A DNA stretch of 44,748 nt from Escherichia phage Schulenburg, in the sequence record MK931438.1. One strand, written 5' to 3'. Positions within the stretch are counted from its first letter, which is position 1. Each line of letters begins with the position of its first letter. A program made the translations under genes and the position numbers. Shown here in pieces: positions 6,309 through 42,540 of the stretch. The notes below the pieces were generated by a model. The model did no database searches. It saw only the letters and a program-made list of their open reading frames with translations, and had not been told where the DNA came from.

Positions 6309-6515
6309 CCACCTGAGCTTGTGAAGTATGAACAAGCGACCGCGGCGCGGGCAGGTAACGGAGCGGGACGTAAGTCCTGAGTGTAGTTACGCTGACGCGT
6401 TCGGAAGGGCCATAGTCTATTGCTTGTGTAAAAAGTAACTGGTTTACTGAGATTACGCCGTTTCTATGTTTAAATGATAAGGACTAGCGCCCCGCTTTAA
6501 GGCGGGGCTTTACTT
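6309..6515 (+). ncRNA. candidate promoter-proximal structured RNA / leader element (copy 1)
   Basis: About 40 nt (cctgagcttgtgaagtatgaacaagcgaccgcggcgcg) identical to copy 2, then about 130 nt diverged but alignable; hairpins gcttgt-N9-acaagc and ggac-GTAA-gtcc; ends with stem gccccgc/gcggggc plus TTTACTT just before the Rz SD. Confidence 0.3.
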
Positions 6516-12090: not shown

Positions 12091-13229
12091 ATATGGCTAC
12101 AACTCCTTTTAAGGGCGCGAATACCGCGCAATTCTATGTGGCGGAAACTACCCCGGGCGTGACACCGACTTCCCCGGTATGGTCGCCGTTGCGTAATACT
12201 GGCGGCGTTCCCGCGATTACCCGCGACACTTTGACCTCCAACGAACTGGACGGCAGCCGCGAAACTACGTCAATTCGCACTGGTAACAAACAGGTTAGCG
12301 GTGAATACGCCATCGAGCTTAGCTCTAAAAGTCAGGATGACTGGCTGGCAGGTGCTTTAGGCTCTACGTGGCAATCAGGTGTATCCTTAACTGACCTGTC
12401 AATTACCGTCGCACCGGCAGGCAAGACGTTCACCCGTGCTGATGGTAGCTTTATTACCGACGGCGTTGAAGTAGGCGACCTGATTGCGTTTACCGACTTA
12501 ACGGGAGATAACGCAAAACCGTTCATCGTCACTGCGGTAGAGGCACTGGTAGTGACCGGTGCGGGCATCCAGCACACTCTCACCACAGAGACCGCTACTA
12601 CTGCTGCTAAGACAGGCGACAAACTGGAAACCGGTAGCCAGTGTAAGACGTTCTCTATTCTCACATGGTACAAAGGCCAGTGCGGCGGGACTGACGCGTA
12701 CACGCTTACCAAAGGTGTAGAAGTTTCTGGTTTCACTGTTGAGCAGGCCGTTAACGCGATGGTAACGGGCAGCTTCCCGTTCATCGGGCGCAGCCAGGAG
12801 ATTCTCACCGAGCCGCCGTCTGGTTCTGATTTCTCCTCTGTTACGTTTGGTGATGAGCCGTTCTCCTCAGTTGACGTTTCTGTGTTCGATGGCTCTACGC
12901 CGTTGCGTTGTGATAGCCTTACCATCACCAACGACAACAGCGCGTCCGCGCAGTTCGAACTCGGCAACACTAACGTTGCGTTTGTGGAACGTAGCCGCGC
13001 GGCCAACACCTTCTCCATCTCCGGTAAGCTGTACGACATGGCGATGATTCAGAAGTTTATCAACGAACAGCAGGTAGAGATTAACTCTATTCTGGCGGGG
13101 GTAAACGGGGCTATGTCTTTCAGTCTGAAACGTGCAGAACTCACGGCGGTTACGCCAGAGATTGGTGGTCCTGAGTCAATCACTCAGAGCATAGAAGGAC
13201 AGTCAACAGGCAATCAATATCAATCTTAA
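12087..13229 (+). CDS. major tail protein (putative)
   Basis: 380-aa ORF upstream of chaperones and tape measure, followed by a strong terminator. Confidence 0.6.
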   Translation: MNMATTPFKGANTAQFYVAETTPGVTPTSPVWSPLRNTGGVPAITRDTLTSNELDGSRETTSIRTGNKQVSGEYAIELSSKSQDDWLAGALGSTWQSGVSLTDLSITVAPAGKTFTRADGSFITDGVEVGDLIAFTDLTGDNAKPFIVTAVEALVVTGAGIQHTLTTETATTAAKTGDKLETGSQCKTFSILTWYKGQCGGTDAYTLTKGVEVSGFTVEQAVNAMVTGSFPFIGRSQEILTEPPSGSDFSSVTFGDEPFSSVDVSVFDGSTPLRCDSLTITNDNSASAQFELGNTNVAFVERSRAANTFSISGKLYDMAMIQKFINEQQVEINSILAGVNGAMSFSLKRAELTAVTPEIGGPESITQSIEGQSTGNQYQS

Positions 13230-13273: not shown

Positions 13274-13310
13274 AAGGAAAAGGCCCCTTTCGGGGCCTTT
13301 TCCTTATTCC
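13274..13310. terminator. strong bidirectional intrinsic terminator
   Basis: Perfect 14-bp stem aaggaaaaggcccc / ggggccttttcctt with TTTC loop, A-rich 5' side and T-rich 3' side; between convergent genes. Confidence 0.7.
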
Positions 13311-15248: not shown

Positions 15249-15289
15249 GGTGTAGCTCCTGTTTGAGTTAACATTGTTGGTGTAAGTGA

Positions 15290-15318
15290 ATAGTATCCTA
15301 TTATGTTGGGGTGCGCAA
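15290..15318 (-). promoter_or_regulatory. type-B promoter/operator (TTGCGC-N17-TACTAT over palindrome AATAGGATACTATT)
   Basis: Same architecture as sites near 6185, 38175 and 39101; about 40 nt upstream of the Imm-like gene. Confidence 0.45.
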
Positions 15319-25753: not shown

Positions 25754-25757
25754 ATAC

Positions 25758-25790
25758 AAAAGGCCCCGAAAGGGGCCTTTTCTCTACTTT
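25758..25790. terminator. bidirectional intrinsic terminator at structural/replication module boundary
   Basis: aaaaggcccc-gaaa-ggggcctttt hairpin with flanking A and T runs. Confidence 0.65.
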
Positions 25791-25917: not shown

Positions 25918-26409
25918 TCACGCGGTTTCTCCGTGGTTTTCATGAAATCCGTAAGCAGCTTCCGCAGCTTTACGCGCGGCGACAGCTTCGTCAAAATTAT
26001 CAAACCTTCCAATAGTTTTTGTCTTTCTAAATTTGGTTATTTGTACCAACCACTTGCACCGCTCTTTGTCAAATGACACCCCTACCGCCCCAGACCTATT
26101 ACGCCCGGTAGCCAGCCTGTTCATAGCGTTTTCCTGCTTAGTAACTACCCTTAAATTTGCGAGCCTGTTATCTGCGCGATTATGGTTCTGATGGTCTATT
26201 TCCATGCCGTCTGGTATAGGCCCATTGAACATTTCCCATATGACCCGGTGTGCGCGGTAGATAACCCCGTTGTAGCGAAACTGAATGTAGCCGAACTTGT
26301 TTAGTGTTCCGGCTACAGCACCTTTAGCAACATTTTTAGCAGGTTTTATAACCCATATTAGATTTCCGGTCTCCGGTTCATACCGTAGTACATTCTTCCA
26401 GATAAACAT
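25918..26409 (-). CDS. HNH endonuclease with AP2 domain
   Basis: HNH motif EIDHQNHNRADNRLANLRVVTKQEN; C-terminal AP2-like GVSFDKERCKWLVQI...GRFDNFDEAVAARKAAEAAYG. Confidence 0.8.
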   Translation of the reverse strand: MFIWKNVLRYEPETGNLIWVIKPAKNVAKGAVAGTLNKFGYIQFRYNGVIYRAHRVIWEMFNGPIPDGMEIDHQNHNRADNRLANLRVVTKQENAMNRLATGRNRSGAVGVSFDKERCKWLVQITKFRKTKTIGRFDNFDEAVAARKAAEAAYGFHENHGETA

Positions 26410-27830
26410 TATCGTTTCCTTCTCTTCATATAATTAAGTAGTTCGTCCTGTACAGACCTTTTCTCGTCTGTACGCGCGGCGACAACTTCATCAAGAGTAT
26501 CTCGGGCTATTATTTTATAAATGAATACAGACCGTTTGTATCCGGATTGCATCTGCCTTACTGGGCCTATACGCTCGATAACCTGCAGATAATGTTCCAG
26601 GTTCCACCCCTGACTCATAAAAGCCATGTGATGCCCGCCGTGTTGTAGCGACAGCCCGTGGCCCGCGGAGGCTGGGTGTATCAGGAGCATAGGTATCTCG
26701 CCACGGTTCCACGCTTCCATCTGCTTATTACCCTTGGCCCCTTTGGCAAACGCCTGGGCTTGTGGGAATCTCTTAAGGATGCGCTCCAGTTCATGCTTGA
26801 ACTGATAGGCCACCAGTAACGGCGCACCATGCAACTCTTCAACAATGGACTCCAGCGCGTCCAGCTTCGTGTCATGCACTTTCTCCCAGTCTTTCGTTGC
26901 TTCGCCATCTGGCCCTGATACATACACGGCACCGGACGCAATCTGCAAACACTTAGATGTCTTCGCAGCCGCGTTAGCCGCTTCAACTTCTCCGCTCTCC
27001 AGTTCCGCGAATAGCTTCTCCTCCATATCTATGTACGCCTGACGCGCTTTCTTCGGCAGGTCAATTTCCACCGGCACGATAATCGGCGCTTCACAACCGA
27101 ACCACTCGGCGGCGTCAATCGTCAGGCTAATGTCTTTCATCTTCTGGTGAATTTCATTATCCGCACCAGGGCGTGCATGATACTCACGCGCCATAGCCGA
27201 TTTGCCTTTCTGTACCGAGTTAAACCATCGGTCGGTGAATGCCGTGTATGAAGAACCGAGGCGCTCGCCCGCGTCGATAAACCAGTTCTGACCCCACAAG
27301 TCTTTGAGGCCGTTCGGTGACGGCGTTCCCGTCAGGTTTATAAAACGCTTGACCCTACCGAACGCAACCTTGCTAAGCGCCTTTGCCCGCTTGCTGCCAC
27401 CTGAACGACTGCGGAATGATTTCAGTTTCGTGCTCTCATCGGCAACGATAACCGTAAAAGGCCAGTCGTCTTTGCCGTAATAGTCAATAAGCCACTCGAT
27501 AACTTCGTAGTTTGTACAGACCACATTAGCGTCTGACTCCAGTGCCGCGATGCGGCGCTTCTCTGAACCTGTCGCATCTACGACGCGCAGACACGGGAAT
27601 CGCCATTTCTCTTGTTCTGATGGCCATGTGCCGGACGCAACACGCAGCGGGGCGAGGATTAACACGCGGTCGTCGTCCGTAAGCTGCCCGTTGCGGAACA
27701 GTCGGTTAAGCACCCACATCGTTGCGGAACTTTTGCCGGCGCCCATCGAAGCCCAAATATTACAGCGAGGATGCTGTAGCATGAACGAAGTCATGAGCTT
27801 CTGGTACTCGCGCCTTTGAAACTTACTCAT
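26409..27830 (-). CDS. SNF2/DEAD-like helicase
   Basis: Walker A ASMGAGKSS; DExx box VIVADESTKLK; 473 aa. Confidence 0.75.
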   Translation of the reverse strand: MSKFQRREYQKLMTSFMLQHPRCNIWASMGAGKSSATMWVLNRLFRNGQLTDDDRVLILAPLRVASGTWPSEQEKWRFPCLRVVDATGSEKRRIAALESDANVVCTNYEVIEWLIDYYGKDDWPFTVIVADESTKLKSFRSRSGGSKRAKALSKVAFGRVKRFINLTGTPSPNGLKDLWGQNWFIDAGERLGSSYTAFTDRWFNSVQKGKSAMAREYHARPGADNEIHQKMKDISLTIDAAEWFGCEAPIIVPVEIDLPKKARQAYIDMEEKLFAELESGEVEAANAAAKTSKCLQIASGAVYVSGPDGEATKDWEKVHDTKLDALESIVEELHGAPLLVAYQFKHELERILKRFPQAQAFAKGAKGNKQMEAWNRGEIPMLLIHPASAGHGLSLQHGGHHMAFMSQGWNLEHYLQVIERIGPVRQMQSGYKRSVFIYKIIARDTLDEVVAARTDEKRSVQDELLNYMKRRKR

Positions 27831-28018
27831 TTTGCCACCAGCACCAGCTCTTTACGCCCGAACGCCGTAACGTTACCTGTTACGTCTTCAATAACCAGTT
27901 TACCGTTCGACTCGACGAACACCGTATCAACGGCAACAGGTTGACGGGTCTTAACATTGAAAATCATGTCGCCAGGTACGATGTCACGTGCGGGTTTGCG
28001 GTCATATTCGTGTTTCAT
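27827..28018 (-). CDS. hypothetical protein (63 aa)
   Basis: AAGGAA SD; first gene after the 28052-28080 promoter; overlaps helicase start. Confidence 0.5.
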   Translation of the reverse strand: MKHEYDRKPARDIVPGDMIFNVKTRQPVAVDTVFVESNGKLVIEDVTGNVTAFGRKELVLVAK

Positions 28019-28048
28019 TTCTCAATTCCTTATATTGTTGGTGTAGGA

Positions 28049-28348
28049 CTAACTATAATAGTTTGCTATTATGTCGTCAACCTCTTCTTTTGTTCCTACT
28101 ACAAAAACATTTGCGTCACGTTTACGAAGCCGTTTGTGCTCCCGTAACTGATGTTCCTCCGGTTCCGTGTTTTCATCCTTCTTCACCTCTACAAACCATA
28201 TAACCCCTCCCGGAAGGACAACCAACAGGTCAGGCGCTCCGTTTCTACCCTCATACACTATCTTACGAACGAGGCCGCCAAGGGCCTCGAATTGCTCTTT
28301 TGCGTATTTCTGAATCTTGCCTTCCGGAGTCATGAGCGCAAAACCCAT
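28049..28348 (-). CDS. VRR-NUC domain nuclease
   Basis: PD-(D/E)xK-type motif PDLLVV...WFVEVKKDE; 99 aa. Confidence 0.6.
   Translation of the reverse strand: MGFALMTPEGKIQKYAKEQFEALGGLVRKIVYEGRNGAPDLLVVLPGGVIWFVEVKKDENTEPEEHQLREHKRLRKRDANVFVVGTKEEVDDIIANYYS
28052..28080 (-). promoter_or_regulatory. type-A promoter with operator in spacer (TTGACG-17-TATAGT; ATAATAG-N4-CTATTAT)
   Basis: Minus-strand -35/-10 with 17-nt spacer containing a perfect 7-bp inverted repeat; overlaps the 3' end of the VRR-NUC gene. Confidence 0.55.
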
Positions 28349-28476
28349 GCAAGGAAAGCCCCACCAACAACGGCAGCACCAACAAACTTAAAGAACAGGT
28401 CATAATAGAACATCGAAGCTATTCCCGCACTGAGTAACAGTGCGAGCATGGTTACTATCGTCCAAAATACAAACAT
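28330..28476 (-). CDS. small hydrophobic protein (48 aa, putative)
   Basis: Not in ORF track; ATG-initiated, stop overlaps VRR-NUC start; one of several overlapping small-ORF candidates in 28350-28690. Confidence 0.3.
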   Translation of the reverse strand: MFVFWTIVTMLALLLSAGIASMFYYDLFFKFVGAAVVGGAFLAWVLRS

Positions 28477-28685
28477 TGTCATAATACACACCCCTCACGT
28501 TTCGTATGCTCAATTCCGCAGCGCGGACAGATTCGACAATCTTCTTCATATAACCGGTATATTTTCATTCCGGCACCCACAGATAAATTGCGATTAACAT
28601 ACCCAATACGGCAACCATCATGCCGTACTGTCCCTCGTGACAGTAACCACCGGCGGCGAATCCAGCCAGTACCGCGATAATCAGT

Positions 28686-30857
28686 TTACTTAGCATAGCG
28701 CTTCATCTCCGCACCTTCTGCAACCAAAGGGAATCCCTCCGCCCAGTCAGGCAATTCACACATCAACCTCTCAAGCTCTGCAACATTGTATTCAGGCGAA
28801 TCTGGCGTCTCGCAGATAATCTCATCGTGTACATGAAGCACAATCGGGTAGCCGTTTGCTTCAACTTTAAGTAGCGCGTTAGCCAGCAAATCACGGCACA
28901 ACGCCTGCGTACAGTTTTCCACCAGTTTGCCTGAGTACGTGTACTGGAATCCCCACTGACGCGTTAACTGGTTCTCCCCCTGGTACTTGATGCGCACGTT
29001 AGTAGAAACTTTTCCGTCTTCGTCTGTCTCTTTCGACACGCTTAAACCGACGCCAGGGTAGGACATAACACGTCCCGACGGCAACGTCATGCGCAACCAC
29101 CAACCCGCTACCTTGTTGCCGTTGTTGTCTGTTTCTACGTTGCGGGAAAACTTAACTCCGCGCGGGCCAGCGGAGAACTCTTTCCCCGGATTACGTATAG
29201 CTGCCATAGCTGCGTCTTCAATATCGCGCCAGAATTGTACTATCGCCGGGTTGGCTTCCCGGTACATTCGTTTCAGAGCGTCACATGTACGCCAGACTTT
29301 CTTATCAAGGATATATGATGGTCGGTCATCCTTTTCACCCGGACGCGGAGGACGTTTAGCTTCCTGAATACGTGCCCACTCGTAACCACGTGCCGTAGCG
29401 GCCCATATATGGTCAGGGAAAGTTCCAGCTAAAATGTTAGTCATGTCGTTCAAATCAAGCCCTAAGTTTTTAGCAAACGTGACGAAAGCGCCCACACCCC
29501 CCGCGTAGCCCAGTCCGAGAACCATTGCTTTGGCTATTTGTCTTTGGTCTTTTGTTACGTCGTCATAACTAACATTGAACACGGTTGATGCGAGTTTCTT
29601 GTACACATCAACTCCGTTTACAAATACTTCTATTAAATCGTCTTCACCCGCCAGCCAGGCCAGCCCACGACCTTCAACGTTAGAGTAATCGGCAACAACA
29701 AACTTGTGTCCGGCTTCCGGGATGATGCAGCTACGCACCGTCGATGCCGTCAGCTTGGCGACATCAAAGCGGCGATGTGCACGTCCTTTCAGTAGCGCAG
29801 AAATACCTTTATCCAGTTCATCGTCATGATAGTACCCGCGGGCCAGGTTCTGTGGCTGGAAGCCTTTGCCAGCGAATCGTAGCGTACGCTTAGCCCCGCC
29901 GTACTGGATACAACCACGGCGGCGGTCGTCTGACGAGCGGCCTAGCAACAGCGGGTTATATTTCGTTGACGCAGTTGACGCGGCCCCGAGGCGCATTTCG
30001 ATAATCATGCGTGCATCGTCGGGTAAATCCTCGTCAGCCAGCAGGTCGTTAAGAGTAGACTTCTGTGCGTTATGGATGCGATGCGCAGGGGCCAGTTCAC
30101 GCAGAATCGGCAGGAAGTCTTTACCGGTAAGCGAGCCGCCGTATTTGCGCTGGGCTTCTTCCTGCAACTGCGCCTTGTGCTTCTCTACGGCTTCAATCGC
30201 TGCTTCCGCCAGCGCAACATCAACCTTGAACCCACGGTCATTGATTAACTGGTCCAGTTCCAGTACACGGTCTTCGAACTCAGAGTTACCCCACCGCGGC
30301 AGCTTATGGAAGACTTCACGCATCGCGGTGATGTCGCTCACGGCGTACTTGATGAACAGCGCCCACTCGTCCAGGTGCGTTTCGGCGGTGTAGCGGCGGA
30401 TTTTGTAGTTCTTCGGCGTAGGTTTAGAGAAACGCTGAATCAGCGCCTTGCCGCGTTTATCTTTCGCGTTGTCTGCCGATACACCCAGCACTTCGCACAA
30501 CGCATCAAGTGAACCCGGCAGCGCGTGGCGAAACGCCCAAATCATCGTATCAATGGTGTTGCTTACAGGAATATCAAAACCCCAGCAGTGTTTCATGATG
30601 AGCCTGTCGAACATTGAGCCGTTGTGCCACACCATCTTGATACGGCTGTTCGGCTTAACCAGGCGGCGTAAGGCGCGGTGCAAATCCCCCGGCATGTCGC
30701 TGCCGTCGGTGCAATCCCATACCTGCACAGGCTCGTCATCAAAAGCATAGGTACAGATTAGCACTTCGGTAGTTGGATGTTCGGCGTAAGCGTAAGAACC
30801 GACTTTCTTTAAATCGGCCTCGGAGAATGTTTCAAAGTCCAGGTATAAGTAGCTCAT
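28686..30857 (-). CDS. DNA polymerase, family A, with 3'-5' exonuclease domain
   Basis: Exo I motif YLDFETFS; Pol I motif A VVADYSNVEGR, motif B RQIAKAMVLGLGYAGG, motif C HVHDEIICE; ATG at 30857 (AAGGAAAAAG SD) preferred over TTG 30911. Confidence 0.85.
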   Translation of the reverse strand: MSYLYLDFETFSEADLKKVGSYAYAEHPTTEVLICTYAFDDEPVQVWDCTDGSDMPGDLHRALRRLVKPNSRIKMVWHNGSMFDRLIMKHCWGFDIPVSNTIDTMIWAFRHALPGSLDALCEVLGVSADNAKDKRGKALIQRFSKPTPKNYKIRRYTAETHLDEWALFIKYAVSDITAMREVFHKLPRWGNSEFEDRVLELDQLINDRGFKVDVALAEAAIEAVEKHKAQLQEEAQRKYGGSLTGKDFLPILRELAPAHRIHNAQKSTLNDLLADEDLPDDARMIIEMRLGAASTASTKYNPLLLGRSSDDRRRGCIQYGGAKRTLRFAGKGFQPQNLARGYYHDDELDKGISALLKGRAHRRFDVAKLTASTVRSCIIPEAGHKFVVADYSNVEGRGLAWLAGEDDLIEVFVNGVDVYKKLASTVFNVSYDDVTKDQRQIAKAMVLGLGYAGGVGAFVTFAKNLGLDLNDMTNILAGTFPDHIWAATARGYEWARIQEAKRPPRPGEKDDRPSYILDKKVWRTCDALKRMYREANPAIVQFWRDIEDAAMAAIRNPGKEFSAGPRGVKFSRNVETDNNGNKVAGWWLRMTLPSGRVMSYPGVGLSVSKETDEDGKVSTNVRIKYQGENQLTRQWGFQYTYSGKLVENCTQALCRDLLANALLKVEANGYPIVLHVHDEIICETPDSPEYNVAELERLMCELPDWAEGFPLVAEGAEMKRYAK

Positions 30858-31009
30858 TTCTTTTTCCTTAAATCCAGTGCCTTCGTTTCGCTTAATCTTA
30901 TTTTCATACAATCACAGCAAATCCACACATGCTTGTACCCGGCCCGGTACTCATCTGCATACCACGGAAGCGGTTTCATATAGCGATAAACGTGCTTACA
31001 GAAAAACAT
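30854..31009 (-). CDS. small Cys-rich protein (51 aa, putative zinc-binding)
   Basis: Not in ORF track; MFFCKH...WICCDCMK; stop overlaps polymerase ATG (ATGA), suggesting translational coupling. Confidence 0.35.
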   Translation of the reverse strand: MFFCKHVYRYMKPLPWYADEYRAGYKHVWICCDCMKIRLSETKALDLRKKK

Positions 31010-31021
31010 TATTTTCGACCC

Positions 31022-31049
31022 TTAGTAAAAAGGCCCAATGAAGGGCCTT
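31022..31049 (-). terminator. intrinsic terminator-like hairpin (minus strand)
   Basis: aaggccc / gggcctt stem followed on minus strand by TTTTT; downstream of the DUF2815-like gene. Confidence 0.45.
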
Positions 31050-31068
31050 AGTTAAATTGATTCAGATA

Positions 31069-31695
31069 TTAGCGGCGACGACGTTCGCGGCGCGGTGCTT
31101 CATCTTCTTCGTCGTCTTCCAGGTCAGTAACACTTGCAGAGACTTTAGAACCGCCAAACGCTTTACCTTCGCCGGCGTATTTAATCGCCAGCAGGTTAAC
31201 GCCGAGGACTTTATATTTCTGGCTGAACCAGATTTCAACGCTTACGTTAGCGACGCAGCCGCTGTAAACCTGTTCACCTTCAATCTGTTCGCCTTCGACG
31301 TTGAAGTCAGGCTCTACCTGAGTTTCACCTTTTTTAGAGGTTACAATCAGAGGTTGTTTCTGTGCCTTCGCTTTGAAGTAGAAGCCTTCCGGGAAGTCTT
31401 CAAAAGGATTATCACGCTCGGCGATGTCCTTAATAGCACATTTATCCATGTGCTTGCCTTCGCCGTAGTTTGACTTCATCCACTTCTCGGCAGCAGCGGC
31501 CCCCAGTGCTTCCTCTACAACCGCATAAACAGTGTCGTACATTTCGTCGATTTGCGCATGGTCAGACGGCAGAATGATAGTCGCGCTGTACTGACCTTTA
31601 GTGATAGAGCCATCGTCGTTTTCACGGTCTTTTTCGCGTTCGAATACGTTAACCCATGCAGTGTTTACTTTACGCAGATTTAATTTCAGTCCCAT
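31069..31695 (-). CDS. ssDNA-binding-like protein (DUF2815-like)
   Basis: 208 aa with acidic Asp/Glu-rich then Arg-rich C-terminal tail; adjacent to DUF2800-like nuclease and polymerase. Confidence 0.5.
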   Translation of the reverse strand: MGLKLNLRKVNTAWVNVFEREKDRENDDGSITKGQYSATIILPSDHAQIDEMYDTVYAVVEEALGAAAAEKWMKSNYGEGKHMDKCAIKDIAERDNPFEDFPEGFYFKAKAQKQPLIVTSKKGETQVEPDFNVEGEQIEGEQVYSGCVANVSVEIWFSQKYKVLGVNLLAIKYAGEGKAFGGSKVSASVTDLEDDEEDEAPRRERRRR

Positions 31696-31753
31696 TTGAT
31701 TTCTCGCTTTTAAGTTTCGTTTACTCCGGGAAGCTGCCCGGCCAGTGATTAGA

Positions 31754-31782
31754 ACTATAATAGCTAACTATTCAGGTGTCAA
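31754..31782 (-). promoter_or_regulatory. type-A promoter with operator in spacer (TTGACA-17-TATAGT; AATAG-N4-CTATT)
   Basis: Perfect -35, 17-nt spacer containing inverted repeat gAATAGTTAGCTATTat; immediately after the DUF2800-like stop. Confidence 0.55.
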
Positions 31783-31786
31783 CACT

Positions 31787-33031
31787 TTATTCTAAATCTT
31801 CTTCACTAACCTGATTCCACTCAGGCCGTTTGTCGTCTGCCGTTGCTACACATGGTGCACCTGGCTTACGTGTGATGAAGTCTTTCAGTTCTTCTTCCGG
31901 TATAACTTTAACCGCTTCGGTCGGCGTCATGAGAACGACTTTGTTCAGCATAGTGCCGTATTTCTCAGCCACCTTATCAGCGTCTTTCCACGCACGATTA
32001 CCCGGACGACCCTCGACCAGCTTGTAACCCGGCACTTTCTTGCCAGAATGCAACGCGGCAGCCATAGCTTTCTCAACCTTGTCGATGTGCTGGCGCAACA
32101 ACGGCAGCTTCTCATACTCGGCGACGAGTTGCTCGGGTGTCAGTTCCAGCGCAAAGTCGTCCTCCAGTTCTTCCACCAGTACAGAATTAACAGTCTTCGT
32201 CCTGGCGACGCACTGTTCCGAGAACCGGCACCACTGGCAACCATCGACTGACGGCTTAAAGTCGGACGCTTTCAGGTTCTTCTTACCACGGAAGTACGCA
32301 TCGAGTGCTAACAGCGCGCGTTTATGTGCGAACTTAGTGAACAGTTCCAGGCCTTCAACCGAGATATCCCACTCCGACGCACCGCCAGCATACGGCTGGA
32401 AGATGACCAGACGAACAGTTGTTATGTTATATCGTCTCTTTAGTCGGCGATAAACACCGAGAGCGTAAAGCATAAGCTGCTTGTTTTCTTTCGCTTCGAC
32501 ACGATGCCGTCCGGTTTTCAGGTCACCAATAATGAGCATGTGCTCGTCGGTGTTCGCCAGTTCCTGCACGGCAACAAGGTCAGCGGTCCCGAACGTCTCA
32601 ACGCCTTCATATCCCGGATGCAGCACCTCTGTAAGATTGACGCGCATTTCCAGCTTGGCGTAAGTCGCTACGTCGATAATCGGTTTGCAGTAGTCGGTGT
32701 ACTTACGCACCTGCTCAATCATGTCCGCCGTAATAAGTACCGCACCTTTCATAAGGCTGATTAACGCCTTAATCTGGCCTTTGCCTTCATCCAGCACGTA
32801 AGCCCCGACTTCACGCTCTAACGGCAACGCAGTGCCTTTGATGTACTGGTTAAGGTGAATCTCAGCTATGGTGTGCATGGCTGTGCCCAATACGGCGGCT
32901 TTACCTGACGTATTTGGAATGTCTTTTTCACATGCCAGTGATGCACTGCACGTCAGCCACTTCTTAGCGCCTGACGGCGACAACAGGGCGTGCACATCGT
33001 TATTGCCGCCGCGTTCTTTTAGTTTCATCAT
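31787..33031 (-). CDS. PD-(D/E)XK Cas4-like nuclease (DUF2800-like)
   Basis: N-terminal HALLSPSGAKKWLTC, nuclease motif TADLVAV...IIGDLKTG, C-terminal Cys cluster CQWCRFSEQC. Confidence 0.7.
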   Translation of the reverse strand: MMKLKERGGNNDVHALLSPSGAKKWLTCSASLACEKDIPNTSGKAAVLGTAMHTIAEIHLNQYIKGTALPLEREVGAYVLDEGKGQIKALISLMKGAVLITADMIEQVRKYTDYCKPIIDVATYAKLEMRVNLTEVLHPGYEGVETFGTADLVAVQELANTDEHMLIIGDLKTGRHRVEAKENKQLMLYALGVYRRLKRRYNITTVRLVIFQPYAGGASEWDISVEGLELFTKFAHKRALLALDAYFRGKKNLKASDFKPSVDGCQWCRFSEQCVARTKTVNSVLVEELEDDFALELTPEQLVAEYEKLPLLRQHIDKVEKAMAAALHSGKKVPGYKLVEGRPGNRAWKDADKVAEKYGTMLNKVVLMTPTEAVKVIPEEELKDFITRKPGAPCVATADDKRPEWNQVSEEDLE

Positions 33032-33285
33032 TTGGACTCCACCGGTAACTCAGGTAAATACATCCAGTGTGTTATACCCATCTCTATATACCGTTTCGTG
33101 TATAACTGTTTTCCGTTTTCATCCAGACCGGCGGTGATATCGTCGAAGTAATCCTGGATGTGAACAAAATCAATTCCACCTTCAGGGAAGCCGTTGTCAT
33201 CATATTTACTTCCGTCTACGGAGCAAACCAAAACAGCATCATCTTTTGATTCCGGTAACGCATCATTTACGCTAACCCAATTCAT
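33028..33285 (-). CDS. hypothetical protein (85 aa)
   Basis: ORF with overlapping start/stop coupling in the leftward operon. Confidence 0.5.
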   Translation of the reverse strand: MNWVSVNDALPESKDDAVLVCSVDGSKYDDNGFPEGGIDFVHIQDYFDDITAGLDENGKQLYTKRYIEMGITHWMYLPELPVESK

Positions 33286-33554
33286 ACCCTAACCTCCCAC
33301 TGGTCGATTAAATGTCGTGTCTTATGGTCGCAGTGCATAGCCCATCCATACATCGACTCGAAGACATAAAAGTCACTTTTAACAAAAGTCGTGCGCTTAA
33401 TCTGCGACATGTGACGGCCTATATCTTTAGGCCGTGGTACTTTGCCTAAGTACGCCATCTCTTCCATCTGGTGTGCGCCGGACGGAGCGCGCAACAGCCA
33501 TAGCGCCTCTGCGTTATCCCGCCGGTCAACGGCGCGGTAGAGTTGGTAAATCAT
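33282..33554 (-). CDS. hypothetical protein (90 aa)
   Basis: ORF in leftward operon. Confidence 0.5.
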   Translation of the reverse strand: MIYQLYRAVDRRDNAEALWLLRAPSGAHQMEEMAYLGKVPRPKDIGRHMSQIKRTTFVKSDFYVFESMYGWAMHCDHKTRHLIDQWEVRV

Positions 33555-33597
33555 AATTACGACCCTCAGTTAAAGCGGCCCGAAGGCCGCGAGATAG

Positions 33598-34095
33598 TTA
33601 TTCTTCTTCGAAATACTTGTTCTTGATTGCCGTCAGGCGTTCCAGGTATTCGGCCAGGTCTTCGTCTTTAATCGCGGCAATCTTCATCTTCTTGCCGGTG
33701 AACTCTTCTAGCAGTTCATCCGAATCATCGCACGCGGCATCGCTCGGGCCTTCGTTAATTGCATCGTCGATAGCCTGAATCTGGTCGCGCAGAGACTGGT
33801 AATCGACTTCTTCCTTCTCTTCCGTCTCTGGCGTCGATTCCTCTACTTTAGCTTTACGCGGCTTACGTTTCGGCTTCTCTTCTTCCGCCGGTTTAGTGTC
33901 AACCAGGTCTTCACCTTCGACCGGGATTTCTTTTGTTTCTTCTTTAATACTTTCAGAGAACTGCTCAATTTTATGCGCGGCTACTGCGGCGGCCTCTTTG
34001 GCAGTAGTTGGCGCGAACTGTTTTGCACTGTTCGCAGCAATCAGTTCATGGGCAACTACGAAACGCTCCAGTAATTTCAGAAATTGTTCTAACAT
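33598..34095 (-). CDS. highly acidic protein (165 aa)
   Basis: Glu/Asp-rich, low-complexity central region; AGGAGAG SD; early position in leftward operon. Confidence 0.55.
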   Translation of the reverse strand: MLEQFLKLLERFVVAHELIAANSAKQFAPTTAKEAAAVAAHKIEQFSESIKEETKEIPVEGEDLVDTKPAEEEKPKRKPRKAKVEESTPETEEKEEVDYQSLRDQIQAIDDAINEGPSDAACDDSDELLEEFTGKKMKIAAIKDEDLAEYLERLTAIKNKYFEEE

Positions 34096-34290: not shown

Positions 34291-34319
34291 ACTATAATAG
34301 CGAACTATTCACTTGTCAA
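34291..34319 (-). promoter_or_regulatory. type-A promoter with operator in spacer (TTGACA-17-TATAGT; AATAG-N4-CTATT)
   Basis: Minus-strand promoter divergent from the HTH regulator gene; inverted repeat gAATAGTTCGCTATTat in spacer. Confidence 0.55.
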
Positions 34320-34322
34320 TGG

Positions 34323-34352
34323 GCTTTTCTAAAATAATTAATATGGTACTAT
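34323..34352 (+). promoter_or_regulatory. candidate promoter of HTH regulator with half-palindrome AATATGGTACTATT
   Basis: TACTAT -10-like hexamer with weak -35; operator-like motif related to the type-B sites. Confidence 0.35.
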
Positions 34353-34383
34353 TCACGCATCAACTAACTAAGGAGTAACTGAC

Positions 34384-34599
34384 ATGCAACCATCTGAACT
34401 AGGCATCCGTGTAGAACAACGCCGTAAAGAACTCGGCATCTCCCAGCGCCGTCTGGCTGTCCTGACTGGCGTTTCCCAGGGCGCGATTAACCAACTGGCA
34501 CTTGGGGTAACTCAGGACGTCCGCCCGGCGACGCTGTTTAAACTGGCGGAAGTGCTGGAGGTAGACGCCAAGTGGCTGGCGTTAGGTGAAGGGGCTTAA
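34384..34599 (+). CDS. HTH XRE-family transcriptional regulator (Cro/CI-like)
   Basis: 71 aa; HTH region ELGISQRRLAVLTGVSQGAINQLALG; AAGGAG SD; divergent from operator-containing promoters. Confidence 0.7.
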   Translation: MQPSELGIRVEQRRKELGISQRRLAVLTGVSQGAINQLALGVTQDVRPATLFKLAEVLEVDAKWLALGEGA

Positions 34600-34616
34600 T
34601 GCCCCTTTCTTTTTAT
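34589..34616 (+). terminator. intrinsic terminator after HTH regulator gene
   Basis: aaggggc-ttaat-gcccctt hairpin followed by TCTTTTTAT. Confidence 0.55.
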
Positions 34617-34630: not shown

Positions 34631-34927
34631 CTATTCCAAATTCTTAATCGTGTGTTGCACGTTCAGGTACTGAATCCACGCAAAAAGCCATACGCTTAAC
34701 GGAAAACTAACCACAGCTGCCGTTCTGAAAACAATGTGGACGGTACACGCTACAATTTCCTTTACCGTCATATCCAGAACGTGGCGCAATTCTGCAACTT
34801 CCTCTAACGCTAGCTTGCAAGCAGGCCACCATTGGTGTGCTACACAAGAAACACATGTCAGGTACGACGGGCGGTATCCAGCCCTCACTGCTTTAAACGG
34901 GTTATCTATAAAATCGTAGATATTCAT
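34631..34927 (-). CDS. hypothetical Cys-containing protein (98 aa)
   Basis: ORF downstream of primase in same operon; hydrophobic C-terminus. Confidence 0.5.
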   Translation of the reverse strand: MNIYDFIDNPFKAVRAGYRPSYLTCVSCVAHQWWPACKLALEEVAELRHVLDMTVKEIVACTVHIVFRTAAVVSFPLSVWLFAWIQYLNVQHTIKNLE

Positions 34928-37185
34928 TCCAAATCCTCTTCTGTCACTATCAGCATCTCATTCGGCTCGTATATTGTCTTCGGAATCTTGTTATCGTTTA
35001 TGCCCCACGGCAGCCGATATTGCTTAGGTATAGGCCTGTTGTTATTATCCAGCCCAGAGACGATAACCCCAGCCTCGTGCATCTCCTCCAGTTTCTTTCG
35101 AAGGTCGTTATTAGCGTTAATCGGTACACCATAACTATCTTCTTTCGCCGCTTTGACGATAGCGGACATAGAAAACCCTCGCTTGTCGTCGCCCTGCTCC
35201 TGCAATTTACCTAATGCGTAAATAACCGTAGCTTCTTTGGTACCCAGTTTCTCGAACTGGCCTACCTTTTCTTTAACGGCTTCCTTCTGTTCGTCGGTCA
35301 TACCTTCTACTTTCTTCACGAAGACAGAGAAGGCGTTAAAGTTAACAAAGACATCGATGTGCGGATTTCCCGCGTCAAAATCTCGCACATCGTCACTGCT
35401 ATACCCTTCCGGAAGCACCATGAAGTTGTGAGTTGGTTCTTTCTTTTCCGGTGGCTCCGCTATCTGAATCTTCTGTATTACGAATCCTCTGGCTTTCTGC
35501 CGTTCTCCGTTTCGGTTCTTTATGTGATACAGGTTTATCTCTAAGTTATTGTCGTTGTCTGGTTTATGCAGGAACATCCCGTTATCGATGGAGTTGTGAA
35601 AGTCGCTCCCACCCTTCGGCATCATGCCGTTTTCAGACGGTACGGTTTCGTCGATGTTTTTAGTCGGGTGCACCATAGCGCCTACCGCAGCGTTAAGCGT
35701 CGACGCTATTTCGTTAAGCGCCTGCGCCGCTTCTTTCATCGACCTGTTGTCGTTCTCGTCGAAGCCTGGTATGCAAGTTTGTAGGGTATCAAACGTAACC
35801 TTTACAATTTTCTCTTCACCGGCGACACGGCGCATCATTCTTACCGCCTGGCGGCGCCATGCTTCATCAAGTAAATTACACCCATCGGCAACACAATCGA
35901 TAATGTGCAAGCGGTCCAGGCTATCCCCGAGGGCAATCTGCAAAGACTTTTTATGTCGCCCGAACGACTGTGCGCCTTCACCGGCGAAAATGAACGCATG
36001 TCCTTCTGCAACCTCTGCCCCACCGAACGCATATCTTTTTTCGGCGGCAATAGCGGCGTCAATCGCCATACTAAATGTCGACTTACCAGTGTGGGACTTT
36101 GCGCAAATGTAAAACGATTCGTTAGTCTGCATAAGGCCGTCTACGACGGAGTAAGCAGGTTCTTTTTCAACTTCCGGCTCGTCTTCGAGGTCTTCCAGAG
36201 TGCAAGTTACAGGCTCTTCATTCTCTGTGCGGTGTAATTCCTCAATCTCTTCGTCCGGTAAATCAGGCAGAGCCGCACGAATGCTGTTAATACTGATAGG
36301 TTGCTTGTCTACGTTAAGCTCGTCCGGAAGACCGCACATACGCAGAGCCAAATGTTGTCGGCGGTTAAGCTCGGTGCAAGCGCCGTTGTTTGTGTGCTGG
36401 CACACGAAGCGCACTTCTTTACCATCAAGCATAATGCTGGTGGAGCCTTTGCCGGTGTGCAGGTGTTCGTTAGGGCAAGGCACTTCGTACCCGCGACCGG
36501 AAGATAAAGCGTCAAGGCCAAGCTCCGCTTCGCAGAAATGCGCTATATCCGCGTTAAGCCCATGCTCATCGGCAGCAAGGGTCTTAGCTTCACGTTTACG
36601 CAACCCCATTTCTTCGGCTTTCTTGATGTACCGCTCGGCACGGATAACACGCCCTTCTGTAACCGTTATCTTCGACTCTTTATGCGGCAGGTAGATAAGG
36701 CGGTTGCCATCTTCTGTGCAGTGGTCACGCAGCGCTTCGTCTATCTCTAACTCTGCACAAATGGCGCGTTGTACCATCCACGCATCGTTAGAGTTAAACG
36801 GCGTGCGTGCAGGTACAAGAACGCGAAAGGCGTAATCCCCGTTTTTACACGCGTGCTGATGCGACGCCGTTGTGTGCAGAATGTTGAAGAACGGCGCGTT
36901 CTTGAATTTGCGCGTCAGGTCGCGGTACTGAGCGCGGTTGAGATGGTCGAAGTCGAACTTAACCACACTGTCTTCCAGAATCGCGTTCTTACGGCGACCG
37001 CCAACCGGCGCAATAGCTTTCTGCTTAATCTTGGCCGCGTCGTACTCTTCCTTAGTCCATGACGGGTCTACGGACAGACGCTTCGATGTATCGCAGACAT
37101 ACTCTACAAACTGCTCCAGTGGCATTTCACGGGCTACCGGGTTTTTATCGAATGTGTTACGCAGCGTTGCAAAAACAATATTCAT
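34924..37185 (-). CDS. DNA primase/helicase (P-loop NTPase)
   Basis: 753 aa; Walker A AKSHTGKST; large N-terminal domain; position in replication module. Confidence 0.65.
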   Translation of the reverse strand: MNIVFATLRNTFDKNPVAREMPLEQFVEYVCDTSKRLSVDPSWTKEEYDAAKIKQKAIAPVGGRRKNAILEDSVVKFDFDHLNRAQYRDLTRKFKNAPFFNILHTTASHQHACKNGDYAFRVLVPARTPFNSNDAWMVQRAICAELEIDEALRDHCTEDGNRLIYLPHKESKITVTEGRVIRAERYIKKAEEMGLRKREAKTLAADEHGLNADIAHFCEAELGLDALSSGRGYEVPCPNEHLHTGKGSTSIMLDGKEVRFVCQHTNNGACTELNRRQHLALRMCGLPDELNVDKQPISINSIRAALPDLPDEEIEELHRTENEEPVTCTLEDLEDEPEVEKEPAYSVVDGLMQTNESFYICAKSHTGKSTFSMAIDAAIAAEKRYAFGGAEVAEGHAFIFAGEGAQSFGRHKKSLQIALGDSLDRLHIIDCVADGCNLLDEAWRRQAVRMMRRVAGEEKIVKVTFDTLQTCIPGFDENDNRSMKEAAQALNEIASTLNAAVGAMVHPTKNIDETVPSENGMMPKGGSDFHNSIDNGMFLHKPDNDNNLEINLYHIKNRNGERQKARGFVIQKIQIAEPPEKKEPTHNFMVLPEGYSSDDVRDFDAGNPHIDVFVNFNAFSVFVKKVEGMTDEQKEAVKEKVGQFEKLGTKEATVIYALGKLQEQGDDKRGFSMSAIVKAAKEDSYGVPINANNDLRKKLEEMHEAGVIVSGLDNNNRPIPKQYRLPWGINDNKIPKTIYEPNEMLIVTEEDLE

Positions 37186-37384: not shown

Positions 37385-37591
37385 ATCGCCTGCAAACCAC
37401 GCGTGCGCAGAATCATAGAAACGACATTTACTTAATACCTCGATTGGCATCTTAATAATGCGCGTCGGTTCCGACAAATGATTAGGCTTACATATTTCTA
37501 CATAGAATCCGCTGTCAGTAATTTCTGACGCAAACTTAAACCGGTATTTAACTTTACCGTCTTCAAAGTAACAACCCATACGCCCAATCAT
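37379..37591 (-). CDS. hypothetical protein (70 aa)
   Basis: ORF coupled to upstream AlpA-like gene. Confidence 0.5.
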   Translation of the reverse strand: MIGRMGCYFEDGKVKYRFKFASEITDSGFYVEICKPNHLSEPTRIIKMPIEVLSKCRFYDSAHAWFAGDK

Positions 37592-37770
37592 TTCACGTTC
37601 TCCTTAATCCATGCTTCAACTTTATTACGGTCAAATGTACCCGGTAAACGGCGGCCCATTACTTTAATACAGCAGTCAGGGAATTTACCACTGCGCAGCC
37701 AGTTATTAATTGTCTGACGTGTCACACCGATACGTTCTGCTACTTCATTCTGGGTCATGTAATGTTGCAT
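37588..37770 (-). CDS. AlpA/Xis-like DNA-binding protein
   Basis: MTQNEVAERIGVTRQTINNWLRSGKFP HTH; ATG at 37770 with AGGAGA SD. Confidence 0.5.
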   Translation of the reverse strand: MQHYMTQNEVAERIGVTRQTINNWLRSGKFPDCCIKVMGRRLPGTFDRNKVEAWIKENVK

Positions 37771-37876: not shown

Positions 37877-37905
37877 GTTGACTTTTACTAAGAAATATGG
37901 TAAGC
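37877..37905 (+). promoter_or_regulatory. sigma70-like promoter (TTGACT-17-TAAGCT) of conserved RNA element, copy 2
   Basis: Same hexamers and spacing as the copy at about 6280. Confidence 0.5.
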
Positions 37906-38105
37906 TCAGCCTGAGCTTGTGAAGTATGAACAAGCGACCGCGGCGCGCGGCAGGCGAAACGAGCACGTGTAGCGTGTGGAGTGAGGCTCGCTAGCGCGTT
38001 TGGGAGGCCCAAAGTCTATTGTAATTCCCGCCTAAATATCTAAGTTACTGATTTGCCGTAGGTTATATCCGCAAGCTCACTCACTCTTGGTGCCTTCGGC
38101 ACCAC
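37906..38105 (+). ncRNA. candidate promoter-proximal structured RNA / leader element (copy 2)
   Basis: Shares the about 40-nt core and a further diverged about 130 nt with copy 1; hairpin gcttgt-N9-acaagc; ends near the ggtgcc-ttcg-ggcacc hairpin. Confidence 0.3.
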
Positions 38106-38174
38106 GTTCGTTTCGCTCGCTACACCATTAAACAAAAGAATCACAACGGCAACGTAACCATTTTCAATGAATCT

Positions 38175-38203
38175 CTTGCACACCCCAACATAATAGGATA
38201 CTA
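38175..38203 (+). promoter_or_regulatory. type-B promoter/operator (TTGCAC-N17-TACTAT over palindrome AATAGGATACTATT)
   Basis: About 35 nt upstream of first early gene. Confidence 0.45.
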
Positions 38204-38238
38204 TTCACTTATCGGAACGAGACAGAGGAGTGAGGGTT

Positions 38239-38421
38239 ATGTTTAAGAAGGGTCAGTTGGTTAAAGTAAAAGGGACCAGGGCTTTTTGCTGCGTAGAGTG
38301 GTGTATTGAAATAGATGGGCTTGTTAAGGTTAAAAATGTATTCATAGGCCACTACAGTATATTGCACACGAAAGACATAGAACTCATCGGCAACAATTTT
38401 AAATTCAAAGGGGCGAAGTGA
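38239..38421 (+). CDS. hypothetical early protein (60 aa)
   Basis: ATG with GAGGAG SD; first gene of rightward early cluster. Confidence 0.5.
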   Translation: MFKKGQLVKVKGTRAFCCVEWCIEIDGLVKVKNVFIGHYSILHTKDIELIGNNFKFKGAK

Positions 38422-38609
38422 TGGGAGAATTAATTTACGACGTATACGTCGACGGGGTTATCTCAGAGACGACAAGTAATAAAGATTACGCAATAAAGCT
38501 GTATGTGTATTACGCCGCAGAGGTAGGAAGGATGGTCGAAGTGCGGGAGAGAACGGCATCGAATCATGGTGCCAGTGCCGACGACTCTGAGGGAGGTTGC
38601 CGTAAATGA
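38418..38609 (+). CDS. hypothetical early protein (63 aa)
   Basis: ATGA overlap coupling. Confidence 0.5.
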   Translation: MMGELIYDVYVDGVISETTSNKDYAIKLYVYYAAEVGRMVEVRERTASNHGASADDSEGGCRK

Positions 38610-38797
38610 GAATTCGTATAACTGATGTTGAACAAACATGCCCTGAGGAATACCAGGACGTTAGCCTTGCGTACTTTGGCGTCTCTGTTGGTGATGAGTT
38701 CGACGTAGGTATTAGTTGCGAATATGGGTTTGTTGTAAATCATCGCGGCGAGAATTTGTTCGTCCGTAATTCTGAATGCGAAGTTCTGGAGGACTAA
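38606..38797 (+). CDS. hypothetical early protein (63 aa)
   Basis: ATGA overlap coupling. Confidence 0.5.
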   Translation: MRIRITDVEQTCPEEYQDVSLAYFGVSVGDEFDVGISCEYGFVVNHRGENLFVRNSECEVLED

Positions 38798-38800
38798 GTT

Positions 38801-38962
38801 ATGAGAGAAGCGTTCGAACGGTGGGCCGTCGTCGAGGGTCTGCCGGTTAACAAGGGTTCGAAGAAAGAGTACCTGAACGTTAAGACGCGTCTCGCGTGGC
38901 GGGCGTGGAAAGCTGGTGTGCAATATCGTGCCGGTATGACAGGTGGTGTAACAGGTCAATAG
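38801..38962 (+). CDS. hypothetical early protein (53 aa)
   Basis: Not in ORF track; GGAGGA SD then ATG 38801. Confidence 0.4.
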   Translation: MREAFERWAVVEGLPVNKGSKKEYLNVKTRLAWRAWKAGVQYRAGMTGGVTGQ

Positions 38963-38984: not shown

Positions 38985-39025
38985 TACGCTGCTGTGTAGC
39001 AGCGTATCATTTTTCTCATTTTTTG
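38985..39025 (+). terminator. intrinsic terminator
   Basis: 9-bp stem tacgctgct / agcagcgta with GTGT loop followed by TCATTTTTCTCATTTTTT. Confidence 0.6.
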
Positions 39026-39100: not shown

Positions 39101-39129
39101 TTGCACGATGGGGAAGAATAGGATACTAT
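39101..39129 (+). promoter_or_regulatory. type-B promoter/operator (TTGCAC-N17-TACTAT over palindrome AATAGGATACTATT)
   Basis: About 35 nt upstream of ATG 39161. Confidence 0.45.
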
Positions 39130-39160
39130 TCATTTACACAAACGAGAGGAGAGGCAGAAT

Positions 39161-42191: not shown

Positions 42192-42323
42192 TGGACGAAT
42201 ACGAAGGTGTTTAGTATTATGGTTAAGCCAAGTTTTTCGTATTTGCATACTAAGCCTTGGTAAACCTGAAGCAGCAGCCCAAGCGGTGGAGACTGCGTAG
42301 GGTTCAGAGGCTTATGACCGAAA

Positions 42324-42352
42324 CCCGGACCGCGAATCCGGGTTTTATTTTA
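42324..42352 (+). terminator. intrinsic terminator 1 after lysis cassette
   Basis: acccgga-ccgcgaa-tccgggt hairpin followed by TTTATTTT. Confidence 0.6.
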
Positions 42353-42356
42353 CCAA

Positions 42357-42385
42357 TTGACACCTGAGAATAATCCGACGATACT
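42357..42385 (+). promoter_or_regulatory. candidate promoter (TTGACA-17-GATACT)
   Basis: Perfect -35 with weak -10, located between the two terminators. Confidence 0.3.
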
Positions 42386-42424
42386 TAAATCACCTCCTGT
42401 TCCATCCCTCTGCTCTCCAGTTTT

Positions 42425-42457
42425 ATCCCGGCCCTGACCCAGCCGGGATTTTTTTTA
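42425..42457 (+). terminator. intrinsic terminator 2 after lysis cassette
   Basis: 8-bp stem atcccggc / gccgggat followed by 7-8 T. Confidence 0.65.
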
Positions 42458-42478
42458 TCTATTTTCTGTAATGACTAG

Positions 42479-42507
42479 TTGACTATTACCTACGACCCTA
42501 TTATATT
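42479..42507 (+). promoter_or_regulatory. sigma70-like promoter (TTGACT-17-TATATT)
   Basis: About 35 nt upstream of ATG 42541. Confidence 0.5.
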
Positions 42508-42540
42508 TACTTCATCGACAACGAGAACGGAGTAGAGAAG

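Follow-up and report, generated by a model that had tools for sequence, protein, structure and literature searches.

At position 38176 of the genome of Escherichia phage Schulenburg (sequence record MK931438.1) begins a promoter-like element with an unusual -10 hexamer, TACTAT, that lies within the inverted repeat AATAG-N4-CTATT, an arrangement that raises the question of whether a phage factor, and not host RNA polymerase alone, reads this DNA. The window that we analyzed, 44,748 bp in length, is the near-complete genome of this Kagunavirus (Guernseyvirinae), and matches Escherichia phage Snoke at 97.7% identity over the 5 kb compared. A first-pass annotation had grouped the element with three others that share a TTGCRC -35 hexamer, an exact 17-nt spacing, TACTAT and the palindrome, and had proposed that the four promoters either depend on a phage factor or are repressed by one. 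The grouping is confirmed: TTGCRC-N17-TACTAT (hereafter type B) has exactly four matches in the 44,748 bp and none in 100 dinucleotide-preserving shuffles, and AATAGGRTACTATT is found at all four sites. That these constitute one promoter family is likewise borne out at each of them, with sigma-70-type hexamers set 17 bp apart, an A at -11, a T at -7 and the palindrome placed over the -10.

The founding element occupies 38176-38205 on the plus strand, with its -35 (TTGCAC) at 38176-38181, its -10 at 38199-38204 and its palindrome, AATAGGATACTATT, at 38192-38205; the site is real, although its coordinates had been given as 38175-38203 and are off by one (38176-38204). A second plus-strand copy is found at 39101-39130 (TTGCAC-N17-TACTAT at 39101-39129, palindrome at 39117-39130). 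The remaining two are on the minus strand, at 15289-15318 (TTGCGC-N17-TACTAT at 15290-15318, palindrome at 15289-15302) and at 6184-6213 (TTGCGC-N17-TACTAT at 6185-6213, palindrome AATAGGGTACTATT at 6184-6197). All four stand before transcription units, with 28-42 nt between the -10 and the start codon and a Shine-Dalgarno sequence at each, and terminator-like hairpins precede two of them (38088-38104 before the 38176 site and 38985-39006 before the 39101 site).

The units behind these promoters differ in content. Downstream of 38176 are four small open reading frames (ORFs; 38239-38962), and downstream of 39101 are the DUF7170 gene (39161) and further small genes towards the lysis cassette; the products of both units, DUF7170 included, are small proteins without known function. 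The 15290 site heads a leftward island in the tail module that encodes an Imm superinfection-immunity protein (15248-15057), an SbcD-like metallophosphoesterase (15017-13887) and a 66-aa ORF, and the 6185 site precedes a leftward gene inside the head module (6157-5636) for a 173-aa protein of phrog_3007 (DNA metabolism). The latter two units had been described as morons; they are indeed accessory islands, but with functions of an early type, namely superinfection immunity, an SbcD-like nuclease and DNA metabolism.

One palindrome in three promoter registers

The palindrome is not confined to the type B sites. AATAG-N4-CTATT has seven perfect copies in the window against 0.03 expected, and allowing at most one arm mismatch yields 11 sites (the seven perfect copies and four with a single mismatch) against 0.9 expected, every one of them in non-coding sequence or at the end of a gene. 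In the Kagunavirus and Jersey genomes that we examined it outnumbers every other 5-N-5 palindrome, and its extended form, which we treat as a putative operator, reads (K)AATAG-N4-CTATT(M) and spans 14-16 bp. Ten of the 11 sites overlap sigma-70-like core promoter elements, and they do so in three registers: over the -10 in type B, within the spacer in a second class with the form TTGACR-N17-TATAGT (type A), and over the -35 of two TTGACT promoters (type C). The palindrome is centered at about -12.5 in type B, -18.5 in type A and -33.5 in type C, positions that all fall within the RNA polymerase footprint.

The closest sigma-70 matches anywhere in the genome are the type A sites, which agree with the consensus at 10-11 of 12 positions and are all on the minus strand. 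One of them, TTGACA-N17-TATAGT at 34291-34319 with a perfect palindrome in its spacer (34296-34309), diverges from a cro-like gene at 34384 and points towards the leftward early/replication operon. Another (31754-31782, TTGACA-N17-TATAGT, palindrome at 31759-31772) lies upstream of the genes for a single-stranded DNA-binding protein and DNA polymerase, and the last (28052-28080, TTGACG-N17-TATAGT, palindrome at 28057-28070) lies between the DNA polymerase gene, upstream, and a helicase block, downstream. The palindromes at 28057 and 31759 are situated inside a unidirectional gene array, where the opposite strand has no gene to transcribe. The first-pass annotation had matched the type B half-site to the type A operator and suggested a common protein; with the same palindrome present at 28057, 31759 and 34296, one factor probably serves both classes.

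Inspection of the imperfect copies extends the family further. On the plus strand, the one-mismatch copy AATATGGTACTATT (34340-34353) covers the -10 (TACTAT, 34347-34352) of the cro-like gene's own promoter, which lacks a -35; the mismatched base gives rise to a TGn extended -10 (TGgTACTAT) and recurs in about 30 Kagunavirus sequences. This is a fifth, type-B-like site that the original inventory, correct in each of its four members, had overlooked. The two type C sites are also one-mismatch operators on the plus strand. The site at 42474-42507 has ACTAGTTGACTATT over the -35 of TTGACT-N17-TATATT, after the terminator behind the lysis genes and upstream of small genes and the terminase, and that at 6275-6308 has AATAGTTGACTTTT over the -35 of TTGACT-N17-(TGa)TAAGCT, followed by a leader of about 200 nt with a terminator-like hairpin at its end (6489-6508) and then by spanin and head genes. 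A degenerate copy, TATAGTATGCTATT (3369-3382, plus strand), directly follows a terminator (3349-3364) and has no -35.

Two further observations attach to these sites. A perfect 16-bp everted palindrome, AACTATTCGAATAGTT (6265-6280), in which the operator arms appear in reverse order (CTATT-CG-AATAG), abuts the -35 of the promoter at 6279 and may represent a shared or overlapping half-site arrangement. In addition, TATAGTATGCTATT overlaps the annotated ATG (3375) of a head-morphogenesis gene, and this annotated start may be wrong.

Both palindrome arms change together between lineages

Comparison across the genus shows which parts of these elements are held constant. We collected 72 type B sites, comprising 50 distinct sequences, from 37 Kagunavirus sequences, and obtained the consensus CTTGCACaC....A.AtAATAGG.TACTATTCA.TTA, in which CTTGCAC, the palindrome arms and TACTATTCA with the -10 are at least 90% conserved and in which the second central base and the part of the spacer ahead of the palindrome are variable. 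Hexamers and spacing are conserved in these 72 sites and in 80 type A sites; over the 152 classified sites the arms are at least 90% conserved, with variation in the central bases and the flanking spacer. The left arm of type A sites, which lies in the promoter spacer, is conserved to the same degree (at least 90%). The cargo behind the operator-promoters differs among Kagunaviruses, and the promoter-operator cassette is kept.

Between lineages, synteny and promoter registers are retained, and both arms of the palindrome have changed symmetrically. Kagunaviruses (the window and Bas71) carry seven copies of AATAG-N4-CTATT, and Jersey carries four of TAATAG-N4-CTATTA. Pantoea phage AH01 has no AATAG-N4-CTATT but five copies of AATAC-N4-GTATT and two hybrids, which mark the leftward islands, the region around cro and the early promoter that points rightward. 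The Cornellvirus VSiP has no AATA-N6-TATT and instead three copies of TATTA-N6-TAATA; phiEap-2 has eight copies of AATA-N6-TATT with mixed inner bases. Among metagenomic genomes, L099 has five copies of TAATA-N6-TATTA, again with mixed inner bases, and L101 has three of TTAGC-N2-GCTAA, one in the type A layout (TTGACT-N17-TATAGT) and two in the type B layout (TTGACC/G-N17-TAAAGT).

This series accounts for the odd -10 of type B promoters. The AH01 orthologue of the 15290 site reads TTGCAC-N17-TAGTAT in place of the TACTAT of the window, indicating that the third -10 base tracks the arm of the operator (C with CTATT, G with GTATT). The weak -35, which had been taken as characteristic of the family, is present throughout the window's type B sites, but is a Kagunavirus habit rather than a defining trait: the Jersey equivalent of the 39101 site has a TTGACA -35, and that of the 15290 site has TTGCAT with the palindrome shifted by 3 nt. 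Because the arm changes are symmetric and lineage-specific, and because the left arm of type A sites is conserved within a spacer, host sigma-70 is insufficient to explain the palindrome. The sequence comparisons strongly suggest that a phage-encoded factor stands behind it, and a dimeric, lineage-specific DNA-binding protein can explain both the covariation of the arms and the conservation of the type A left arm.

The repeat itself has been listed before. In VB_EcoS-Golestan, the program PHIRE returned seven 'conserved promoter sequences' (PMC7203180, Table S4), which are the same 20-mers in the same positional set; the sites before ORF3, ORF7, ORF23, ORF48 (two), ORF54 and ORF59 of that phage correspond to positions 3369, 6185, 15290, 34296, 34340, 38176 and 39101 of the window. 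For fBC-Eco01, PHIRE gave seven 'phage RNAP promoters' with the consensus tgAATAGTa-ccTATTat-T (PMC9825357, Table S2; RNAP, RNA polymerase). Both papers list the repeat only, and contain no mention of a palindrome, a -35/-10 register, a link to a Cro-like protein or covariation across genera. The GenBank record of Jersey (KF148055) annotates sigma-70 promoters as 'TTGACA(N15-18)TATAAT-like' at three of its four perfect palindromes, treating them as plain host promoters and leaving the embedded palindrome unmentioned. A literature search found no study of transcription regulation in the Guernseyvirinae. New here are the operator interpretation, the three registers, the account of the odd -10 and the cross-lineage covariation series; the existence of the repeat was known from PHIRE lists, and a Cro-type repressor that occludes sigma-70 promoters is textbook.

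A Cro-like protein as candidate repressor

Only two proteins encoded in the window have recognizable helix-turn-helix (HTH) domains, one of the HTH_3 family and one of the HTH_17 family. The former, a 71-aa protein (34384-34599, plus strand; Pfam HTH_3, E=2.3e-12), is Cro-like, matching 434 Cro (E=8e-6), the 434 repressor (E ~1e-5) and P22 C2 over its full length. Its gene forms a monocistronic unit that ends in a terminator (34588-34608) and is flanked by the operator sites at 34296 and 34340, 44 bp apart. The Cro-like protein is present in all six complete genomes compared, where it is the only recognizable HTH protein common to all, and in four further lineages retrieved with the Cro-like protein itself; in each lineage the gene lies between divergent promoters that bear that lineage's own palindrome. 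Within Kagunavirus the protein is 94-100% identical at all loci but one (78%, in one sublineage), despite mosaic neighbors. In Bas71 (PQ850615), the cro-like gene is present at 32649-32861, 98.6% identical to that of the window, and is unannotated in the GenBank record; we had considered this phage as a natural cro-like knockout, an idea that the presence of the gene rejects.

The second HTH protein (60 aa, 37591-37770, minus strand) is excisionase/MerR-like and is found only in Kagunavirus and Jerseyvirus. A tblastn search detected no HTH_17 homologue in AH01, VSiP or phiEap-2, all three of which keep palindrome promoters at syntenic positions, and this absence disfavors it as a universal binder. 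Of three HTH candidates put forward by the first-pass annotation (34384, 37588 and 13887), the first is thus favored and the second, the HTH_17 protein, is disfavored, whereas the product of 13887 has no HTH at all and is rejected as a regulator, being the metallophosphoesterase/SbcD-like nuclease. Among the remaining small proteins shared by all lineages, none has a recognizable DNA-binding domain. We regard the Cro-like protein as the best candidate binder, on the strength of a correlation at the level of lineages.

Taken together, we consider it probable, with appreciable doubt, that the type B sites and the other operator-bearing sites are host-type promoters, each overlapped by an operator that is bound by a dimer of the phage's Cro-like protein and thereby repressed. 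A bound dimer would occlude RNA polymerase, and binding would be expected to repress, since no site has its operator outside the polymerase footprint. The Cro-like protein would be made early, from a promoter with an imperfect operator, and would then turn down the perfect-operator promoters that serve replication, the small early genes and both leftward islands within the structural modules; promoters with imperfect operators, the regulator's own included, would stay on longer. The conserved imperfect sites are found at the regulator's own promoter and at rightward promoters leading towards late genes, a distribution that suggests a graded shut-off. Of the two roles initially proposed for a phage factor, repression is retained, but dependence or activation is mechanistically unlikely given an operator centered at -12.5 or -18.5 and an optimal 17-bp spacer. 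A MerR-like mechanism, which calls for a 19-20-bp spacer and a dyad between the -35 and the -10, is excluded because every type A and type B site has a spacer of the optimal 17 bp; the type B dyad, moreover, lies over the -10. We also rejected an RNA-level role for the palindrome, which precedes the predicted transcription start of the promoter that carries it and could form a stem of only 5 bp.

The proposed arrangement resembles the lambdoid Cro/CI systems in several respects. As there, a small HTH_3 protein, whose nearest solved relatives are 434 Cro, the 434 repressor and P22 C2, is encoded beside short palindromes with conserved arms and a free, variable center that overlap a -10, a spacer or a -35. 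These three relatives bind as dimers to palindromes of 14-18 bp with an uncontacted center; the 434 operators are 14 bp long (ACAA-N6-TTGT), and those of P22 C2 are 18 bp long with four uncontacted central base pairs. The cro-like gene also has divergent promoters with operators on its flanks, its own promoter bears an imperfect site of the kind associated with autoregulation, and the lineage-specific operator variants resemble immunity specificities. Unlike the lambdoid phages, however, the window phage is virulent, without a CI partner, an integrase or a lysogeny module; its relatives are treated in the literature as virulent, and carry no annotated integrase. Its operators are single and spread over about 11 promoters genome-wide, head and tail islands included, instead of being clustered as in OR1-3/OL1-3, and the cro-like promoter region has only two sites, 44 bp apart, not three adjacent cooperative ones. 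The 165-aa protein encoded divergently from the cro-like gene has no HTH; it is acidic with a low-complexity center, has only close homologues, all unannotated, and yielded no domain in Pfam or PHROGs, and we rejected it as a hidden CI. A second comparison is offered by restriction-modification systems, whose controller (C) proteins are HTH_3 dimers (about 70-80 aa) that bind short palindromes, the C-boxes, over their own and target promoters and time a switch through differing affinity. The genetic context differs, in that no restriction-modification pair adjoins the gene in the window, and C proteins typically activate and then repress via two adjacent boxes, whereas the window has single sites inside core promoters.

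Several points weigh against repression by the Cro-like protein. Kagunavirus and Jersey share the same operator, yet their Cro-like proteins are only 48% identical, and the recognition helices (SQGAINQ, SQSLITH, TQGGIGH, TQSAISH and SQGYISH) follow no simple rule that matches the operator changes; for these two reasons the link between protein and operator is only correlative. The 5-bp arms are 9 bp apart center to center, short for an HTH dimer, and reach 10 bp only when a weakly conserved flanking base is counted. Type B sites match the sigma-70 consensus at about 7 of 12 positions and are missed by a strict scan. Should the operator be present on almost all promoters, moreover, a simple early shut-off would require graded affinity, which is an assumption. 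Our literature search turned up no Guernseyvirinae phage with published data on binding, footprints or transcription starts, and the only transcriptome found, a time-course RNA-seq of the Kagunavirus vB_Eco_K1B4 (5-120 min), is too coarse to judge co-regulation (PMC12645636).

If the operator is real but the Cro-like protein is not its binder, the HTH_17 protein (37591-37770) or another, unrecognized phage protein would have to take its place, which we think unlikely. HTH_17 is a genuine DNA-binding domain, its gene adjoins the 38176 promoter region, the assignment of the Cro-like protein is correlative as noted, and only four genes are 'early' in the K1B4 transcriptome, one of them an HTH gene that, from its position, we regard as the homologue of HTH_17 (PMC12645636). 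Its absence from AH01, VSiP and phiEap-2 nevertheless leaves three lineages with palindrome promoters and no such protein, and the 165-aa protein, acidic and without a recognizable domain, is a poor substitute. Proteins of the HTH_17/excisionase type, moreover, do not typically bind short symmetric palindromes as dimers. It is comparably improbable that no regulator is involved, and that the symmetry is a by-product of back-to-back -10-like hexamers in bidirectional or well-conserved host promoters. Such hexamers do occur on both strands of the palindrome (TACTAT on one, TATTAT on the other), three palindromes (6184, 15289 and 38192) lie in divergent intergenic regions, and promoter symmetry is known to give rise to divergent transcription in bacteria. 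Sigma-70, however, hardly differs among the Enterobacterales hosts of these phages, whereas the two arms change in concert from one phage lineage to the next; the left arm of type A sites is conserved in a spacer from which sigma-70 reads no sequence; the 28057 and 31759 sites lie inside a unidirectional array; and the palindrome takes three different registers relative to the core hexamers.

Activation of the weak type B promoters, by the Cro-like protein or by another factor, carries a similarly low probability. Their poor -35 (3 of 6 positions) and non-consensus -10 (4 of 6) would suit an activated promoter, and in the coarse K1B4 data a superinfection-immunity gene, which we take to correspond to the gene that opens the 15290 unit, peaks late together with the leftward replication genes (PMC12645636). 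Against this, the operator center falls inside the polymerase footprint in both type B and type A, the spacer lacks the 19-20 bp of MerR-type spacer-binding activators, and the same site is embedded in near-consensus TTGACA-N17-TATAGT promoters that need no activator. Activators are known to bind at about -41.5 or further upstream. A host DNA-binding protein is a still weaker contender and very unlikely: all hosts belong to the Enterobacterales and the sites overlap host-type promoters, but the arms change in a lineage-specific manner among phages of closely related hosts, and we know of no E. coli regulator with the consensus AATAG-N4-CTATT. The notion that the motifs are promoters for a phage-encoded RNA polymerase can be set aside almost entirely. 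It derives from the detection of the repeat by PHIRE and from the label given to the seven fBC-Eco01 copies (PMC9825357), but PHIRE detects repeats only, and the motif has the form of a palindrome built into -35/-10 hexamers at a fixed spacing. We rejected the label on gene content, as the annotations of Snoke, Bas71, Jersey, AH01, VSiP and phiEap-2 contain no RNA polymerase gene and assign all large ORFs otherwise.

Neighboring elements and implications for phage biology

The window, about 91% of which is coding, opens with rightward packaging, head and tail genes (13-25753), followed by leftward replication genes (25918-34095). Beyond these come the rightward cro-like gene at 34384 and a leftward helicase-primase block, and then, rightward to the end of the window, small early genes, lysis genes and further small genes. 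The helicase-primase itself (34924-37185, minus strand) is a mosaic variant, at least 95% identical in only 19 phage records; that of most Kagunavirus and Jerseyvirus genomes is about 30% identical to it and aligns to half of the protein, and in AH01, VSiP and phiEap-2 the helicase-primase is on the opposite strand relative to the cro-like gene. Near-identical symmetric hairpins of the form AAAAGGCCCC-N4-GGGGCCTTTT mark the borders of convergent gene blocks at 5608-5640, 13278-13302, 25757-25789 and 31026-31058, and are likely bidirectional intrinsic terminators; Jersey, AH01 and VSiP carry the same hairpin family.

Two paralogous promoter-leader modules, at 6279-6515 and 37877-38110 on the plus strand, are 87% identical over their first 71 nt, with homology extending over about 200 nt. 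Both have TTGACT-N17-TAAGCT with a TGn extended -10, and both carry a second palindrome, AAGCTC-N5-GAGCTT, over the -10/+1 region, the arms of which are conserved and the center of which varies between genomes. Their GC-rich leaders end in the terminator-like hairpins noted above (6489-6508 in the first module, 38088-38104 in the second). The first is followed by spanin and head genes; the second, located immediately before the 38176 type B promoter, occurs in about 18 of 35 Kagunavirus loci and is absent from Bas71. Neither module has an Rfam match, and an Rfam scan of the large non-coding regions of the window for known RNAs likewise gave no matches. The modules may be late promoters equipped with a second operator and perhaps also with an antitermination-type leader or a small RNA. 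At the position of the 6279 module, upstream of the spanin and head genes, phiEap-2 has a non-coding region (11501-12680) with four GAATAA-N-TTATTC palindromes. A further non-coding stretch of about 350 bp in the window (42192-42540) separates the endolysin gene from the next genes and contains, in order, a promoter-like TTGACA-N17-GATACT site (42357), a strong terminator (about 42428-42455) and the TTGACT-N17-TATATT promoter (42479); this layout of promoter, short transcript, terminator and second promoter resembles late-control regions.

Few therapeutic and biocontrol siphophages of E. coli and Salmonella are isolated as often as the Guernseyvirinae (Kagunavirus, Jerseyvirus and Cornellvirus). 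For this group, the analysis turns an unexplained and once mislabeled repeat into a testable regulon of about 11 promoters, one operator and one candidate repressor, in which the odd TACTAT -10 is explained by an operator arm that dictates its third base. Accessory islands in the structural modules, one of which includes a superinfection-immunity gene, share this operator with the early promoters. More speculatively, and with considerable doubt on our part, a single 71-aa repressor might time essentially the whole transcription program of a virulent siphophage that uses host RNA polymerase only, with early promoters shut first through perfect operators and the regulator's own and late-directed promoters kept running through imperfect ones, placed over the -35 or bearing the TG-creating mismatch, and the subfamily might hold at least four mutually orthogonal repressor/operator specificities. 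Were this so, these specificity classes, at least four in number, would constitute a set of small orthogonal repressor-promoter parts. They would also amount to a form of 'heteroimmunity' in virulent phages, in which class membership could decide the outcome of co-infection or superinfection between relatives, and would bear on interference between phages combined in one cocktail.

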